This document shows, piece after piece, positions 46,659-51,777 of a stretch of 64,000 nt of DNA. The stretch's first letter is position 1. Each line of letters starts with the position of its first letter. A program made the translations under genes and the position numbers. Location: assembly GCA_963755125.1 (NCBI GenBank), contig CAVWIP010000012.1:150602-214601 (forward strand), given 5' to 3'. Under the pieces are notes generated by a model. It saw nothing but the letters and a program-made list of their open reading frames with translations. It was not told where the DNA came from and did not search any database. This DNA comes from an uncultured delta proteobacterium (GTDB lineage Bacteria > Myxococcota_A > Polyangia > Fen-1088).

Positions 46659-47041
46659 ATGGGTGCCCGCGCAACGCGGGACGCGCGGCGGTTGGTGCAC
46701 GCGCCGAGGCTCTGGCTGCCGCCCTGCTGGAAGCGCGTGGCTATCGCATCGTCGAGCGAAACTGGCGCCGCCCCCAGGGAGAATTGGACTTGGTGGCGGA
46801 ATATCGAGGCATCCTTGTCTTCGTCGAGGTCCGCTCGCGCACGGGTGAGGAACGCGGGCATCCTCTTGAAACGGTGAATGCTCGCAAGCGAGCCCGCGTC
46901 GTGCGCGCCGCTCGCCTGTACCTGGAAGACAACCAGCCCACTGCTACGGCATTCCGTTTCGATGTCGTAGGGGTGACCTTCGCTTGCGACGGGGCTCCGC
47001 CCACAATGACTCACGTGGAAGACGCGTTTCGCGTGGGTTGA
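46659..47041 (+). CDS. yraN: YraN-family (UPF0102) endonuclease. The 5' end is disrupted by an apparent single-base frameshift.
   Basis: Frame 2 encodes ...GARAEALAAALLEARGYRIVERNWRRPQGELDLVAEYRGILVFVEVRSRTGE...RFDVVGV, the YraN signature. The only upstream ATG (46659, MGARATRDARRL) is in frame 0. Restoring one G in ttgg(g)tgca gives MGARATRDARRLGARAEALAAALLEARGY..., a complete 128-aa YraN. Confidence 0.6.
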
Positions 47042-47047
47042 GGCTGT

Positions 47048-47197
47048 TCACTCACATGGGAACCCTGGAAGGGTTCCCATCCCCTCCCGCGATGGTCCGC
47101 CGCCGGCGAGGGCGCGCGCGAAGCGCGCGGGGTGGGCAGGGTGGCGGGTCGTCCCAAAGTCCCCGCAGGGGGCAAAGCCGGCGGGCTCCCCACGCGA
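47048..47197. repeat. Palindromic MITE/REP-like element, copy A. It fills the yraN / rplS convergent intergenic region.
   Basis: Perfect 25-bp palindrome ATGGGAACCCTGGAAGGGTTCCCAT (47056-47080), then a conserved body CCCCTCCCGCGATGGTCCGCCGCCGGCGAGGGCGCGCGCGAAGCGCGCGGGGTGGGCAGGGTGG...AAGTCCCCGCAGGGGG. The body is shared with copy B and, in reverse orientation, with copy C. Confidence 0.75.
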
Positions 47198-47632
47198 CTA
47201 CACCACGCTGGGCGCTTCGCCGTCGATAGCAGGAACGGCCTCTTCGGGAGCCGAACCGCCAACCTCTCCCTGCTCCACAACGCTGCGCTCACCCTTGATA
47301 CGCGCCGCGCGGCCCTGCAGATCCCGCAGATAGTTGAGACGAGCCCGGCGTACGCGCCCGCGCTGCACAATCTCAATCTTCTCGATCCGGCTCGTGTGCA
47401 GAGGGAAGATGCGCTCGACGCCCACGCCATACGAGATCTTGCGCACAGTAAACGATGCGCAAGCCGAGCCGGAGCGCCGGTCAATGCACACACCCTCGAA
47501 TATCTGGACGCGCTCCTTTTCGCCTTCTTTGATCAGGGTGTGAACCCTAACGCTGTCACCCGGCCGAAAATCCGGAATGTTGTCCCGCCGGTAGGCATTC
47601 TCGATCGCTCGTATCAGGGGGTGCGTGCTCAT
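47198..47632 (-). CDS. rplS: 50S ribosomal protein L19, with a C-terminal extension of about 30 aa
   Basis: [50 protein letters not shown]...[22 protein letters not shown], then an extra tail [28 protein letters not shown]. The start was trimmed to ATG 47630-47632. Confidence 0.85.
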
Positions 47633-47689
47633 GGGTCCGCTCGATGCAGGGGCGTATTTACTACGCGGAAGGAGGCCGGCAGTCAACAC

Positions 47690-47977
47690 TTACATGGGAA
47701 CCCTGGGAGGGTTCCCATATCCCTCTCGCGCTCTGGCTCTGGCGGGCTAAGCCCGCCTTCGCCTACGCGATCATGGGAACACAAAGACCTCGCCTAGCCC
47801 TTCGGCCCCCACACCTGCCCCCCCCGACGCTCGCTTCTCTCGGCCTCACCTCCCGCGATGGTGCGCCACGCGCGGCACTGGCAGAGCGGCGGGCAACGAG
47901 GGCGCGCGCGCGGCGCGCGGGGCAGGCAGGGTGGGGTTGTTGGTCCCGAAGTCCCCGAAGGGGGAGCCCGCCTTCGC
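47690..47977. repeat. Palindromic MITE/REP-like element, copy B. This composite or nested copy fills the trmD-rplS intergenic region.
   Basis: Palindrome ATGGGAACCCTGGGAGGGTTCCCAT (47694-47718). A half-palindrome ATGGGAAC lies at 47774. The body CTCCCGCGATGGTGCGCC...CGAGGGCGCGCGCGCGGCGCGCGGGGCAGGCAGGGTGG...AAGTCCCCGAAGGGGG is homologous to copy A. A 22-bp direct repeat GCCCGCCTTCGCCTACGCGATC at 47751-47772 and 47966-47987 flanks about 195 bp, resembling a target-site duplication. Confidence 0.7.
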
Positions 47978-48763
47978 CTACGCGATCCCATCCAGCTCGG
48001 CGAGCAGGGCCCTGTCTTCTTCGGTCAGCGGGTACCGGTCGATCAGGTCAGGACGGCGCAACAACGTACGCCGCAGTGCTTCTCGCCGACGCCAACGTGC
48101 CACTCGGGCATGGTTACCTGAAAGCAACACGTCTGGAACACCCAGCCCGCGGTAGACGGGAGGCCGGGTCCACTGAGGAAACTCCAGTCGGCCGACCGAG
48201 AAAGACTCTTCCACCACCGACTCCCCGCAACCGAGCACTCCCGGCACCAAGCGCGCGGTGGCCTCGATGATGACAGCGGCCGCAACCTCGCCGCCAGCCA
48301 ACACATAATCCCCGATGCTCACCGACTCGTCGGCGTAGATCTGGGCGATGCGCTCGTCCAGACCCTCATAGCGGCCGCAGATGAGCATGATGTGGCCGCG
48401 AGCCGTCAAGTCTGCGGCACACTTCTGGTCGAACAGTCGCCCTGACGGTGTGAGCAGGATCCGATACGCTCGCCCGCGCCGAGTCTCGACATCGTCAATG
48501 GCCGCCGCGACGGGTTCCGGGCGCAAGATCATGCCAGGTCCGCCGCCGTAGGGCGAGTCGTCGACCTGACGATGGCGGCCTGGCGCGAAGTCTCGCGGGT
48601 TGGTTCTCTCGACGGAGATGAGGCCGCTGCTGACAGCCTTTCCCAGCAGGCTGGCCTGGAGGAAGGAAGTGAACACCTCGGGAAACAGGGTGACAATCTC
48701 AACCACAAGCCGAGGTGACGTCGCGCCACCAACGTCGTCTGTGTCGAGCCGACCATCACTCAT
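47978..48763 (-). CDS. trmD: tRNA (guanine37-N1)-methyltransferase
   Basis: Motifs ...VVEIVTLFPEVF..., DDSPYGGGPGMIL, IMLICGRYEGLDERI and the SIGDYVLAGGE knot motif. The start is ATG 48763, or the internal GTG of LVVEIV. Confidence 0.85.
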   Translation of the reverse strand: MSDGRLDTDDVGGATSPRLVVEIVTLFPEVFTSFLQASLLGKAVSSGLISVERTNPRDFAPGRHRQVDDSPYGGGPGMILRPEPVAAAIDDVETRRGRAYRILLTPSGRLFDQKCAADLTARGHIMLICGRYEGLDERIAQIYADESVSIGDYVLAGGEVAAAVIIEATARLVPGVLGCGESVVEESFSVGRLEFPQWTRPPVYRGLGVPDVLLSGNHARVARWRRREALRRTLLRRPDLIDRYPLTEEDRALLAELDGIA

Positions 48764-49358
48764 GAGGATCAACCACCACTCGTTTCGTCGAACGGTCGAT
48801 CGCCACAATGAACTCGGGCACCGCGGGAAGCAACCGCTCGTCCGTCTCCCCGCTCCCAATCACCATGACGTCGTGACCGCCGTTCCAGAACACCTTACGC
48901 ACAACGCCCAGACTGCATCCCTCGCTGTCTTCGACCAGGCAGCCGACCAGGTCCTCCACGTAGAACTCGCCCGCTCCCAACGGCGGAAGCGTCGTCCTAC
49001 GCAACCACAACTCCCGCCCGGTCAGAGACGCCGCCTCCTTTCGCGTCGAAATGCCCTCCAGCCTGAGCAGAAATCCGTCGACAATTCGCCGAATCGCCGT
49101 GACCGTGGCCAGCGTTTCCGAGCCCGGTCGCGTGGAGAGCCCGCCGACTTCGTCGGCGGCGGACCGCCGCGGGAGGGTTTGGGAACCCTTCCGGGGTTCC
49201 CATGTCAACCCCCCAATCGCCACCTCTAGCGGCAGCGCAACGGTGTCCAGTCGCCAACCGCTGGAGTGAAAAGGGCGGAGGCTGATCTCGCCAGTAGTGC
49301 CGTGCGGCCGCCCCAAGGTTCCAAAGGGCAGACTCTCGGAAAGCACGCTGTGACCCAC
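48756..49358 (-). CDS. rimM: Ribosome maturation factor RimM, carrying an in-frame 75-bp repeat-element insertion
   Basis: GTG start at 49356-49358. N-terminal barrel LGRPHGTTGEISLRPF, PRC barrel GAGEFYVEDLVGCLVEDSEGCSLGVVRKV...DVMVIG. An extra segment LTWEPRKGSQTLPRRSAADEVGGLS is encoded by repeat copy C. Confidence 0.8.
   Translation of the reverse strand: MGHSVLSESLPFGTLGRPHGTTGEISLRPFHSSGWRLDTVALPLEVAIGGLTWEPRKGSQTLPRRSAADEVGGLSTRPGSETLATVTAIRRIVDGFLLRLEGISTRKEAASLTGRELWLRRTTLPPLGAGEFYVEDLVGCLVEDSEGCSLGVVRKVFWNGGHDVMVIGSGETDERLLPAVPEFIVAIDRSTKRVVVDPHE
49135..49210. repeat. Palindromic MITE/REP-like element, copy C, in reverse orientation and inserted in-frame within rimM
   Basis: The plus strand ...GTCGGCGGCGGACCGCCGCGGGAGGGTTTGGGAACCCTTCCGGGGTTCCCATG is the reverse complement of the copy-A core (CATGGGAACCC..GGGTTCCCA-CCCTCCCGCG-TGGTCCGCCGCCG). 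The stem is GGGAACCC/GGGTTCCC with a 5-nt loop. Confidence 0.7.
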
Positions 49359-49382
49359 TGAGCGCAGCGGAGAACCCCCGCG

Positions 49383-49667
49383 CTACTCGAGGATCTCCAA
49401 AATCGCACGTCGCTTCATCTTTGCTGAAGCGGCGGAAAGAACCGTGCGCAAAGCCTTGGCGGTGCGGCCTTGGCGCCCGATGACCCGTCCCAAGTCGGAT
49501 TCGGCCACCTTCAACTCGAAGACTGTACCGTCCTGCTCCTCGATTTCCTCGACCGCTACCTCATCGGGGTGCTCCACCAGCGCGCGCGCCAGATAGAGGA
49601 CCAGATCGCGCAGCGGAGGCGCTTTCTCGGAACCTCCCACGGAGGGGGACTCGGCGCCCTCTGTCAC
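49383..49667 (-). CDS. KH-domain RNA-binding protein (YlqC/UPF0109-like)
   Basis: KH motif LKVAESDLGRVIGRQGRTAKALRTVL. This is the typical gene between rpsP and rimM. Confidence 0.75.
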   Translation of the reverse strand: MTEGAESPSVGGSEKAPPLRDLVLYLARALVEHPDEVAVEEIEEQDGTVFELKVAESDLGRVIGRQGRTAKALRTVLSAASAKMKRRAILEILE

Positions 49668-49938: not shown

Positions 49939-50115
49939 GTTATTGGGATCCTCGTGGGCTCGAGCTGAGCCAACGGCTGAGAGTGATTATAACGCATGCG
50001 ATTGTCAAGGCGAAGGTGGTTCTTTTCTCTGCCGAATTTTATCAGCCTGCACGCGTTATTGCCCACCAATCAGAGTGACAACCGGCCGAGCCTCTGCGAT
50101 TTTCCTTTGGTTTTC
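49939..50115. promoter_or_regulatory. Divergent promoter region (rpsP operon on the minus strand, cytochrome gene on the plus strand). It is AT-rich relative to the surroundings.
   Basis: On the minus strand a TATAAT lies at 49986-49991, about 48 nt upstream of the rpsP ATG, and a TTGACA lies 11 nt upstream of it. That spacing is too short for a canonical pair, so only the -10 is credible. Confidence 0.3.
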
Positions 50116-51777
50116 ATGCGTTCACAGCCTCTAGGTCCTCTCCTGCTCGCCTTATTCGCGGCTCATTTCGCGTATCCGAGTAGCCTTGCCTTCGCCAGCC
50201 CGCGTGAACGCCGCGCCGTGGTCTTCTACACTGCACAGACCCAGGGCACGCTTGAACCCTGTGGCTGCACGAGCGATCCGCTGGGCGACATCGCGCGCGT
50301 GACCGCACTGGTTCGTGGCTCCGCACGAGCTGGCGCTACCCTCTTGGTTGATGCCGGCAATCTGACGTACCCCGCAGGTGAAATTCCATCGCGCAGACAA
50401 GAGGCTGCTGATCTGGTGGCAAGTTTCTTGGCCCGCGAGATCACCCGTCTGCCTTTCGGTGGCTCGGCCCTCGGCGAGACGGATCTTGCATGCGGGGTCG
50501 CCAAGGTTCAGCCCAAACGCTTGGCCGCCAACCTCGACAACCTGGCTTTCGTCGAGCCGTCGCGCATCAGCCCGGTGGGAGGAATCAAGATCGGAGTCTT
50601 CGGGCTGGTGGACCCCGCCCTCGTGCGGGAGAAAGGGCTGCGCGCGGAAGAACCAGTGAGCGCCGCTCATGCCGAGGCCGACCGATTGCGCGCGTCCGGT
50701 GCCGAGATCGTGATCGCGCTGGCGCCGCTCGAACGCCAACAGGCACGGGCGGTGGCGCGCGAGGCGTCGGTTGACTTCGTGGTGCTGGGGAATGACGTCG
50801 GCGAGGGATCGTCACGCGCAGAGAAGGTCGGCCGTGCTTTCCTTCTGGTCCCAGGTTCTGAGATGCAGCGGGTGGGCAGGCTGCAGATCGTTCTTCGCCA
50901 TGATGACGGGCGCCCTTCCGGTGAACCCCTGCGCGATGCCGGCGGACCGGCTGCGAGTCGCATGCGCTCCGAGGAGGTCGGCCGCCAACTCCGACAGCTA
51001 GATGCCGAGCTTGCACGCTGGGAAGAAGACGCCAGCAGCGACCCAGCCTTTGTGGCGGCCAAGCGCGAGGAGCGAGCCGAACTGCGCGCCGAGGCCGCCC
51101 GGCTGGCCAGCACGCCGTGGTCAGCCCCAGCCAAAGGCTCGTATTTCATCAACGAGCTTGTGCCCATACGACGCAGCTTGGCCCGTGATCCTGCCCTGGC
51201 TGCCAGCATGCGGAGGCTTGACCAGGCGGTGGGTGCCGCCAACCTTCGAGTGGCAGAGCCACCTCCACCCGCCGAACCGGGCCAGGCCCACTTCTTGGGT
51301 GACGCTTCCTGCGTGCGCTGCCACAAGGCGGCGGTGCGGTTCTGCAAACGCACGGCCCACGCGCATGCGTGGAGAACCCTGCAAGCTGTGGGCAAGACAG
51401 GCCACGGCGACTGTGTTAGCTGCCATGTCACAGGCTACGGCGAGATGGGTGGGTCGAGCCTAGGGTTCAGCAAAGGCCTGGAGAACATCCAGTGCGAGGC
51501 TTGCCATGGCCCGGGCTCGATCCACGTCGAGAAGCGCGGGCTGGAGAAACCGCTCGCCCTGCGCACGCGCACACCCGAGTCGGTGTGCACGCGCTGCCAC
51601 AACGAGAAGCACTCCGACACCTTCCAGTACGAGGCCTATCTGCGCGACATCATCGGCCCCGGCCATGGCGAGGACGTACGCGACGATCTGGGCGCAGGAC
51701 CGACCGCCAGAGATCTGCGCCGAGCCGCCGCGAAGCGCGCGTCGATCTCTGCCAAGCAGCCGAAGGAATTGTGGTGA
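50116..51777 (+). CDS. Periplasmic tetraheme c-type cytochrome with a large N-terminal phosphoesterase/5'-nucleotidase-like domain
   Basis: Signal peptide MRSQPLGPLLLALFAAHFAYPSSLAFA. Four CxxCH motifs: CVRCH, CVSCH, CEACH, CTRCH. The N-terminal half (VVFYTAQTQGTLEPCGC...LLVDAGN...IKIGVFGL...IVIALAP) resembles a degenerate calcineurin-like fold. The ORF-track start at 49996 was rejected. Confidence 0.7.
   Translation: MRSQPLGPLLLALFAAHFAYPSSLAFASPRERRAVVFYTAQTQGTLEPCGCTSDPLGDIARVTALVRGSARAGATLLVDAGNLTYPAGEIPSRRQEAADLVASFLAREITRLPFGGSALGETDLACGVAKVQPKRLAANLDNLAFVEPSRISPVGGIKIGVFGLVDPALVREKGLRAEEPVSAAHAEADRLRASGAEIVIALAPLERQQARAVAREASVDFVVLGNDVGEGSSRAEKVGRAFLLVPGSEMQRVGRLQIVLRHDDGRPSGEPLRDAGGPAASRMRSEEVGRQLRQLDAELARWEEDASSDPAFVAAKREERAELRAEAARLASTPWSAPAKGSYFINELVPIRRSLARDPALAASMRRLDQAVGAANLRVAEPPPPAEPGQAHFLGDASCVRCHKAAVRFCKRTAHAHAWRTLQAVGKTGHGDCVSCHVTGYGEMGGSSLGFSKGLENIQCEACHGPGSIHVEKRGLEKPLALRTRTPESVCTRCHNEKHSDTFQYEAYLRDIIGPGHGEDVRDDLGAGPTARDLRRAAAKRASISAKQPKELW

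Follow-up and report, generated by a model that had tools for sequence, protein, structure and literature searches.

The stretch of DNA considered here, which we call the window, is 64,000 nucleotides (nt) of contig CAVWIP010000012.1 from an uncultured delta proteobacterium, and our subject is a short palindromic repeat that lies in frame inside its rimM gene. The rimM open reading frame (ORF) occupies 48756-49358 on the minus strand and has 200 codons and a GTG start. Its product has the N-terminal beta-barrel and the C-terminal PRC barrel of RimM (Pfam matches to PRC_RimM at 1e-14 and to the RimM N-terminal domain at 3e-07; PF24986, PF01782), and the gene sits within the usual rpsP-KH-rimM-trmD-rplS operon. 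The barrel motif GRPHGxxGE is encoded upstream of the insert in the same frame, and the remaining barrel and the PRC domain follow downstream. RimM is important in E. coli without being strictly essential, as deletion mutants are viable and slow-growing. A preliminary description of this DNA called the gene essential; important is the better word.

The insert is a canonical 81-nt unit, TTGACATGGGAACCCCGGAAGGGTTCCCAAACCCTCCCGCGGCGGTCCGCCGCCGACGAAGTCGGCGGGCTCTCCACGCGA, at 49128-49208 on the minus strand. It lies in frame as rimM codons 51-77 and contributes 27 residues, LTWEPRKGSQTLPRRSAADEVGGLSTR; a peptide such as SAADEVGGLSTRPGSETLATVTAIR would span the junction. The reading frame is unbroken across the unit, and the gene stays open because the insert amounts to exactly 27 codons and, in this copy, is free of stops in the host frame. 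The preliminary description had proposed a palindromic element in frame inside rimM, and on this it was right: the third copy of the motif GGGAACCC-N5-GGGTTCCC falls within the Pfam-supported ORF. The motif starts at 47058, 47696 and 49181 in the window, where dinucleotide-preserving shuffles give a mean of 0.03 copies and none of 100 reaches three. The limits first given, 49135-49210 with 25 residues, have had to be moved to 49128-49208 and 27 residues. The conserved flank said to lie partly in rimM is there as well, but it is what the unit holds beyond the palindrome: the linker, another hairpin and the conserved tail. In rimM the unit is present as a full canonical copy with exact ends, not as a fragment. 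Its hairpin 1, at 49180-49202 on the minus strand, is a 9-bp stem (TGGGAACCC / GGGTTCCCA) with a 5-nt loop and includes the palindrome at 49181-49201. Hairpin 2, taken from the predicted fold, is an 8-bp stem (CCGCCGAC / GTCGGCGG) with a 3-nt loop at 49141-49159 on the same strand.

The same 81-nt unit recurs well beyond this gene. It accounts for 67 of 113 hairpin-to-tail spacings, and where units stand in tandem they repeat every 81 nt. The order of parts is TTGACA, hairpin 1 (TGGGAACCC-N5-GGGTTCCCA, unit positions 7-29), the linker CCCTCCCGCGATGGT, hairpin 2 (positions 50-68) and the tail CTCCCCACGCGA. An alignment of 84 canonical units has a mean column identity of 85%, and the rimM copy shares their architecture. 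Some units carry a 66-nt module X nested in the hairpin 2 loop or a 45-nt module Y after hairpin 1, which makes forms of 126, 147 and 192 nt, and dimers of sub-families are also seen. The recurrent lengths of the forms (81, 126, 147 and 192 nt) and of the modules (81, 45 and 66 nt) are all multiples of three (window 47051-47197; L041, L043, L104, L115 and L001, these and the other L numbers below being loci retrieved from related genomes and metagenomes). This may be coincidence or it may be selection for compatibility with a reading frame.

The two hairpins are conserved in different ways. Hairpin 1 is near-invariant in sequence across 58 distinct units, and 7 of its 11 pairs never vary. Hairpin 2 is conserved in structure: 6 of its 8 pairs have changes on both sides, pairing holds in 95.9% of cells, and none of 500 shuffles reaches the covariation score. 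Shifting the hairpin 2 partner by 1-3 columns lowers the pairing to at most 49%. The rimM copy itself has a compensatory A-T pair in hairpin 2 where most units have G-C. Predicted folding of the unit as two hairpins gives -40.9 and -49.6 kcal/mol on the two strands, with z = -2.8 and -3.5 against shuffled controls. No relevant Rfam family was matched, either in the whole window at the gathering threshold or in a permissive scan of 46900-49500.

The ends of the unit are plain. They are not reverse complements of each other (TTGACATGGG... and ...CTCCCCACGCGA), so there are no terminal inverted repeats. No common flank motif is found in the 84 units, and positions 1-5 (TTGAC) are only 50-70% conserved. 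The consensus lacks GTAG, CTAC, CGTC and GACG, although CTAC stands before hairpin 1 in a minority of copies. Directly after the tail (...ACGCGA), CTAG is found in 11 of the 84 canonical units of L003-L120 (for example L039 at 5365, L095 at 5848 and L109 at 378), against a background of 1.7% per position for the triplets CTA, TCA and TTA. The 5' side has no mirror image of it, and in most cases it is no genuine stop. The element could truly end there on its 3' side, or the tetranucleotide could reflect a preferred target. We considered whether a CTA or TCA after the tail marks the stop of a convergent gene, a terminator-like position, and rejected this as a rule, since a credible ORF ends there in only about 4 of 25 such units. 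The placement at a stop codon does hold for two other copies in the window, A and B2.

Comparison with related genes shows that the RimM segment is lineage-specific. The closest full-length RimM homologues have 173 residues and read ...LPLEAxIG/EPGSETPATV..., with nothing at the slash, where the window protein has GLTWEPRKGSQTLPRRSAADEVGGLSTR. About 20 related rimM loci of 171-173 codons, from genomes and metagenomes, are empty at this site. The residue before the insert is Gly in the window and Glu or Asp in the closest empty-site orthologues. At the level of DNA, the empty site of L117, a metagenome-assembled genome (MAG; fen_1158), reads ATTGGC GAG CCGGGATCC, and the filled site of the window reads ATTGGG GGG, then the 81 nt from TTGACATGG to CCACGCGA, then CCGGGCTCG. 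The difference is exactly the 81-nt unit with zero duplicated bases, and no target-site duplication is found between filled and empty sites. The plain 81-nt unit is confined to the window's own lineage. L001 and L002 carry longer mosaic forms at the same place, of 192 nt and about 207 nt respectively, both in frame. The L002 junction is one codon off from that of the window and L001 (IGGP/LTW against IGG/LTW), and this hints at an independent insertion. L145 reads ATT GGG GGT TTG ACA TGG / CCT GAA ACC, in which the first nine bases of the unit (TTGACATGG) are joined to the right flank; judged from the sequence, this 9-nt remnant is an in-frame deletion footprint.

It might be argued that the extra segment is just an ordinary loop of RimM in this lineage and that its likeness to the palindrome is a coincidence. 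The loop does vary in length and sequence among relatives, which have EPGSE, DPGSE, GLPGSE, GLHSDS, GAHHET and others at this place. The insert, however, agrees with the 81-nt consensus over its whole length, precisely one unit sets the filled site apart from the empty one, and the peptide LTWEPSKGSQTLPRW.AAGEAGGLPTR that it encodes turns up in unrelated proteins. We consider the idea already refuted and give it practically no credence.

Nor do we believe that the insert is an assembly chimera or the product of a collapsed repeat. Repeats are commonly mis-assembled and other copies lie only 1.2-2 kb away, so the objection is a natural one. Three separate metagenome assemblies of the Joint Genome Institute (JGI; samples 3300018040, 3300018008 and 3300018025) encode an identical 200-residue RimM, and because these are independent assemblies the insert is not a chimera. 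They are 99.6-99.9% identical to the window, with strain-level single-nucleotide differences elsewhere and two synonymous substitutions in rimM, one of them inside the unit. The independent relatives L001 and L002 carry in-frame inserts at the same site. An artefact is refuted unless all of these assemblies share a systematic error, and we regard that as extremely unlikely.

The distribution of alleles is patchy. In a neighbour-joining tree of rimM and trmD (1277 columns), filled and footprint loci fall in three groups with bootstrap values of 94%, 100% and 87%, and each of these groups also holds empty sites. There has therefore been repeated gain and/or loss at the rimM site.

What the insert does to the protein can be judged from a model. 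We built an AlphaFold2 model of the window RimM with a 62-sequence alignment, and it matches solved RimM structures of 161-177 residues (2F1L, 3H9N, 2QGG, 3A1P_A and 2DYI). The mean predicted local distance difference test score (pLDDT) is 85.5, with values above 90 on both flanks of the insert. Residues of about 50-81 score 46-58 and have no secondary structure; they lie between the strands at 44-49 and 82-92. The RimM fold looks intact in this model and the insert looks like a tolerated surface loop. Most likely it is translated as a hydrophilic, disordered loop of 27 residues between two strands of the N-terminal beta-barrel. It is most likely a passenger with no role in RimM function, and we infer its neutrality.

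A different view would be that the unit is never translated, either because rimM is a pseudogene or a truncated gene that starts downstream of the unit, or because the RNA loses or bypasses the 81 nt. The match to the Pfam model of the RimM N-terminal domain begins only at profile position 45, on the downstream side of the insert, the hairpins would be very stable as RNA (-41 kcal/mol), and rimM is often truncated by gene callers in this clade. Against this, the conserved LPFGxLGRPHGxxGE lies upstream of the unit in frame with the remainder of the gene, and AlphaFold2 makes one barrel from both halves. Strain variants differ only synonymously, and the frame is kept in all three lineages despite inserts of 81, 192 and about 207 nt. 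No known self-splicing RNA was matched in Rfam. The truncated calls stem from unclear starts and frameshift-ridden assemblies and not from the element. We think it very unlikely that the unit escapes translation.

The short gene calls deserve a separate comment. Many rimM orthologues of the clade have a continuous in-frame N-terminus (LPFGxLGRPHG...) with no ATG, GTG or TTG upstream (L145 1388-1420, L146 2866-2900, L001 5965-6000), which suggests a non-canonical start codon or systematic mis-annotation. Gene callers start such genes at an internal GTG or TTG and report a RimM of 125-137 residues (P0035-P0041 and others). We considered whether these calls were genes broken by the element and rejected the idea, as L120 is ridden with frameshifts and the N-termini of L145 and L146 are continuous without an obvious start. 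In L120 (jgi Ga0562387_00181) NadA and TrmD, among others, are broken up into several short gene calls; the locus looks like a frameshift-ridden, probably long-read assembly whose truncated RimM is an artefact unrelated to the element. The N-terminal half of P0078, a RimM homologue of 165 residues, reads the rimM region in an alternative frame and resembles the window ORF at 48997-49257; this indicates a frameshift in the contig.

The rimM gene is not the only one to have received the unit. About 18 of 179 hairpins (about 10%) lie inside long ORFs with a coding signal on both sides, and about 90% lie outside credible ORFs. Pfam domains flank or span the insert in 9 of the 10 host ORFs that were scanned; the tenth, a methylase-like ORF in L112, had no Pfam match. 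The hosts named by Pfam are the alpha subunit of succinyl-CoA synthetase (SucD), found in two genomes, NAD-dependent DNA ligase (LigA), with its adenylation domain broken in two at profile position 37/38, TsaB, an indolepyruvate-oxidoreductase-like protein (IorA-like), a PAS histidine kinase, an S15 peptidase, a molybdopterin oxidoreductase, an amine oxidase and a dynamin-family GTPase. Examples of predicted junction peptides are VLDASLSSWEPSK and WSAAGGAGGLPTR from SucD in L007. The commonest intragenic peptide is the one found in RimM, LTWEPSKGSQTLPRW.AAGEAGGLPTR, and it recurs in unrelated proteins. One further hit, at position 5623 of L115, was discarded as a false positive; it is native SdhA sequence (ENPYKVPM) that matches the palindrome with at most two mismatches.

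The intragenic copies stand in both orientations and in at least five of the six reading frames. In the frame used by RimM, a TGA falls in the hairpin 1 loop of 34 of the 84 units. Two other frames are almost always open. Because so many units have this TGA, the copies inside genes are a filtered subset of the family. Two orthologous methylase genes have the unit at the same site with indels of +2, -1 and -4 nt, which put the insert in different frames and restore the host frame after it. This pair shows that the integrity of the ORF is kept and the peptide sequence of the insert is not.

The extent of the family was measured by an exact-pattern scan for the hairpin with one genome per species. 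It is present in at least 114 genomic stretches, and copies inside Pfam-verified genes are common. Among the matches listed, nearly all are in MAGs labelled as uncultured Myxococcales, Polyangia or 'delta proteobacterium' from fens, peat, soil and groundwater, and single MAGs contribute up to 15 separate 8-kb stretches. No match among those listed is from the Rickettsiales, and the viral contigs scanned for the hairpin gave 0 matches. One canonical unit sits on a 3.9-kb contig of a MAG labelled Actinomycetota (L064, DATLUW010000387.1), which is probably mis-binned Polyangia and not an occurrence outside the Myxococcota.

Taken as a whole, we believe the best explanation is that the rimM segment is an in-frame copy of a dispersed two-hairpin family, carried as a tolerated loop, and we hold this with good though not complete confidence. 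The segment is one copy of an 81-nt, non-coding repeat, similar to repetitive extragenic palindromes (REPs), to the bacterial interspersed mosaic elements (BIMEs) they form and to Rickettsia palindromic elements (RPEs), that has dispersed in an uncultured lineage of Polyangia. In rimM its insertion point lies after the codons for ...LPLExxIG and before those for PGSET.... The preliminary description had gone further and spoken of a mobile or miniature element family able to colonise ORFs. The checks that it proposed, on RimM orthologues, copy number, folding and assembly, all come out in favour of its interpretation. Dispersal over at least 114 stretches and the Pfam-verified hosts bear out the colonisation; mobility we infer from the dispersal together with the polymorphism of presence and absence, as no terminal inverted repeat or target duplication was found, and no transposase in the retrieved loci.

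Several points weigh against our explanation and should be kept in mind. With none of those three signs of transposition, it is the distribution by itself that argues for mobility. The translation of the insert and the function of the resulting RimM are presumed. The covariation counts come from paralogous copies in sub-families, so the independent compensatory events are fewer than the cells. The figure of about 10% intragenic copies depends on our own codon-usage score, trained on the long ORFs of the retrieved loci, and not on a proper gene caller. A crude scan for the motif HUH...Y..NP in the 1.06 Mb of retrieved loci gave no match, a weak negative confined to these loci. Only one pair of units stands inverted, and it encloses an ordinary esterase-like gene and no transposase, again a weak negative. 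Finally, the 3-4 copies of the window all lie within 2.2 kb in one operon.

This last point leads to the most serious alternative. Copies in the trmD-rplS and rplS-yraN spacers of the same operon could have given rise to the rimM unit through local ectopic recombination, template switching or gene conversion, with no transposition at all, and the patchiness could be one old event followed by repeated deletions. Every copy in the window is within that one 2.2-kb stretch, and the operon spacers carry elements in most relatives. L145 shows that deletion occurs, the loop sequences vary among the 'empty' sites and may be scars of deletion, and neither the inverted pair nor the motif scan of the retrieved loci turned up a transposase. 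Yet this scenario leaves the 114 or more dispersed loci and the many unrelated host genes unexplained. The rimM copy is clean and canonical with exact ends, and the displaced junction of L002 suggests a separate event. We consider local recombination an unlikely source of the rimM copy, and continue to favor insertion of a dispersed, probably mobile unit.

How such a unit might spread is a matter for speculation. It could be mobilized in trans by an enzyme of the HUH/Y1 type, as REPs and IS200/IS605 elements are, that would recognise the invariant hairpin 1 on single-stranded DNA. The guess is made because the unit has neither terminal inverted repeats nor a target duplication. We offer it tentatively, as a possibility that we would not bet on. 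A broader idea is that the element goes beyond a REP-like repeat that now and then survives in genes, and is modular and shaped by selection for compatibility with coding. The loops of highly expressed housekeeping genes would then serve it as safe havens, with seamless insertion and excision by an enzyme acting on hairpin 1. It is suggested by the modules in multiples of three (81, +45 and +66 nt), by two frames that are almost never closed and by orthologous inserts that switch frame. We find it rather doubtful.

The family can be compared with several known kinds of repeat. A 2024 review (PMC10969869) gives the Rickettsia RPEs as the extreme example of in-frame insertion into genes, and Myxococcota are not mentioned in it. 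As described there after Ogata et al. 2000, RPEs are like the present family in being short, multi-copy, non-coding hairpin repeats with a sizeable in-frame fraction in housekeeping genes, and in inserting at places compatible with the fold, so that a peptide is added and the ORF stays intact. The present family likewise has many in-frame copies in unrelated genes and a stable hairpin structure. There are also differences. The hosts of RPEs are reduced intracellular Alphaproteobacteria, whereas ours are free-living, GC-rich, uncultured Polyangia. RPEs are about 100-150 bp, whereas this unit is 81 nt with two different hairpins and nested modules. Unlike RPEs as described there, this family uses at least five of six frames and has orthologous inserts read in different frames. 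We liken it to RPEs by behaviour and do not file it as one, since nearly all of the matches listed are in Myxococcota MAGs and none of them is in Rickettsiales.

The preliminary description called in-frame palindromes classic for Rickettsia. The likeness to RPEs stands, but Di Nocera et al. 2013 (PMC3733652) describe intragenic in-frame REPs that encode 20-30 residues in Opitutus terrae, Thauera, Xanthomonas and others, among them cases within DNA ligase and UvrD-type genes, and this makes the present case less exotic. Like REPs and BIMEs, this family is a high-copy, short, GC-rich, imperfect palindrome, mostly extragenic, arranged in tandem and mosaic arrays, without terminal inverted repeats or target duplication. 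As with REPs, a minority of copies is intragenic and in frame and adds 20-30 residues, in DNA ligase and UvrD-type helicase genes among others (here L113 and L035). The REP super-families are defined by GTAG or CGTC end tags (PMC3733652), and unlike them our consensus has no such tag at either end. A REP is a single palindrome of 20-40 nt or an inverted dimer of these, whereas this unit is a fixed pair in which one hairpin is conserved in sequence and the other in structure. REPs and BIMEs have a partner, the REP-associated tyrosine transposase (RAYT); the crude motif scan of 1.06 Mb of retrieved loci found no RAYT gene for this family.

Miniature elements derived from IS200/IS605, known as palindrome-associated transposable elements, also have hairpins near their ends and lack terminal inverted repeats and target duplications, as this unit does. 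The apparently seamless alleles of presence and absence seen here are compatible with single-strand 'peel and paste' transposition of the IS200/IS605 type. Such elements insert 3' of a fixed tetra- or pentanucleotide with a cognate TnpA. No TnpA (Y1) was seen in the retrieved loci, however, and the TTGAC-like 5' pentanucleotide, at 50-70% conservation, does not establish a fixed target or cleavage site. MITEs, the miniature inverted-repeat transposable elements, such as Correia/NEMIS and ERIC are occasionally intragenic and sometimes form in-frame fusions with host ORFs (PMC10969869), and in being small, non-autonomous repeats with such fusions they resemble this family. A classical MITE is nevertheless excluded because the unit has no terminal inverted repeats and no target-site duplication. 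The element works like RPEs and intragenic REPs without being demonstrably a member of either sequence family. Our literature searches turned up no account of a myxobacterial element of this kind.

In-frame colonisation of genes by small palindromes is best known from Rickettsia and from scattered cases of REPs. Here it is clean and abundant in free-living, GC-rich myxobacteria of soil and peat, whose genomes offer a setting of quite another kind. The defined units, the alleles of presence, absence and footprint, and the frame-switched orthologous inserts can be used to ask how such elements spread, what proteins tolerate and how loops and linkers originate. There is a practical side too, since the element inflates or splits domain matches; the Pfam matches of RimM, LigA and TsaB are truncated or split in these MAGs, whose annotation can be led astray by it. 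If selection for coding compatibility should prove real, this would be a tractable second system, in free-living bacteria with large genomes, for selfish DNA that makes new protein segments.

The remaining copies in the window all lie downstream of rimM in the same operon. Directly downstream is trmD (47978-48763, minus strand), which overlaps rimM by 8 nt and whose length we take from 261-residue calls in near-identical contigs. The last gene of the operon is rplS, encoding L19 (47198-47632, minus strand), and it has copies of the element on both sides. Copy A (47051-47197, plus strand) is a 147-nt long form, an 81-nt unit whose hairpin 2 loop holds the 66-nt module. It occupies the spacer that separates rplS from a convergent UPF0102/yraN-like gene, with its tail directly next to the stop codon of rplS (CTA, 47198-47200). 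We considered whether the copy in rimM, copy C, was a deletion derivative of copy A and rejected this, as 81 nt proved to be the canonical length in the census and copy A to be such a unit with 66 nt of extra module nested in it.

Copies B1 and B2 (together 47689-47985) take up most of the spacer between trmD and rplS. Copy B1 (47689-47770, plus strand) is a variant unit of a second sub-family with the tail ...GCCCGCCTTCGCCTACGCGA and sits about 60 nt upstream of the rplS start. Elsewhere a unit of this type is typically followed directly by a canonical unit (L073, L079, L026, L051). Copy B2 (47773-47985, plus strand) is a degenerate composite of half a hairpin 1, module Y, a linker, module X and a tail, and the tail overlaps the final codons and stop codon of trmD. 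An exact 23-nt direct repeat, AGCCCGCCTTCGCCTACGCGATC, at 47750-47772 and 47965-47987 forms the ends of B1 and B2. The spacer itself (47633-47977 in the window) is a hot spot for the repeat family across the clade, with counterparts in L117 (6255-7078), L110 (5980-6790), L027 (4210-4900) and L002 (4634-4870). The largest, in L117, is about 820 nt long and has three hairpins. The ribosomal operon holds copies of the element in most relatives, even where rimM is empty. On the other side of the operon, a multihaem cytochrome c554-family gene (49996-51777) lies upstream of rpsP in divergent orientation, and farther out come NadA and a PALP enzyme. This synteny is common to L001, L002, L117, L146 and L147 where the loci reach that far, and it serves as a marker by which the clade can be recognised.

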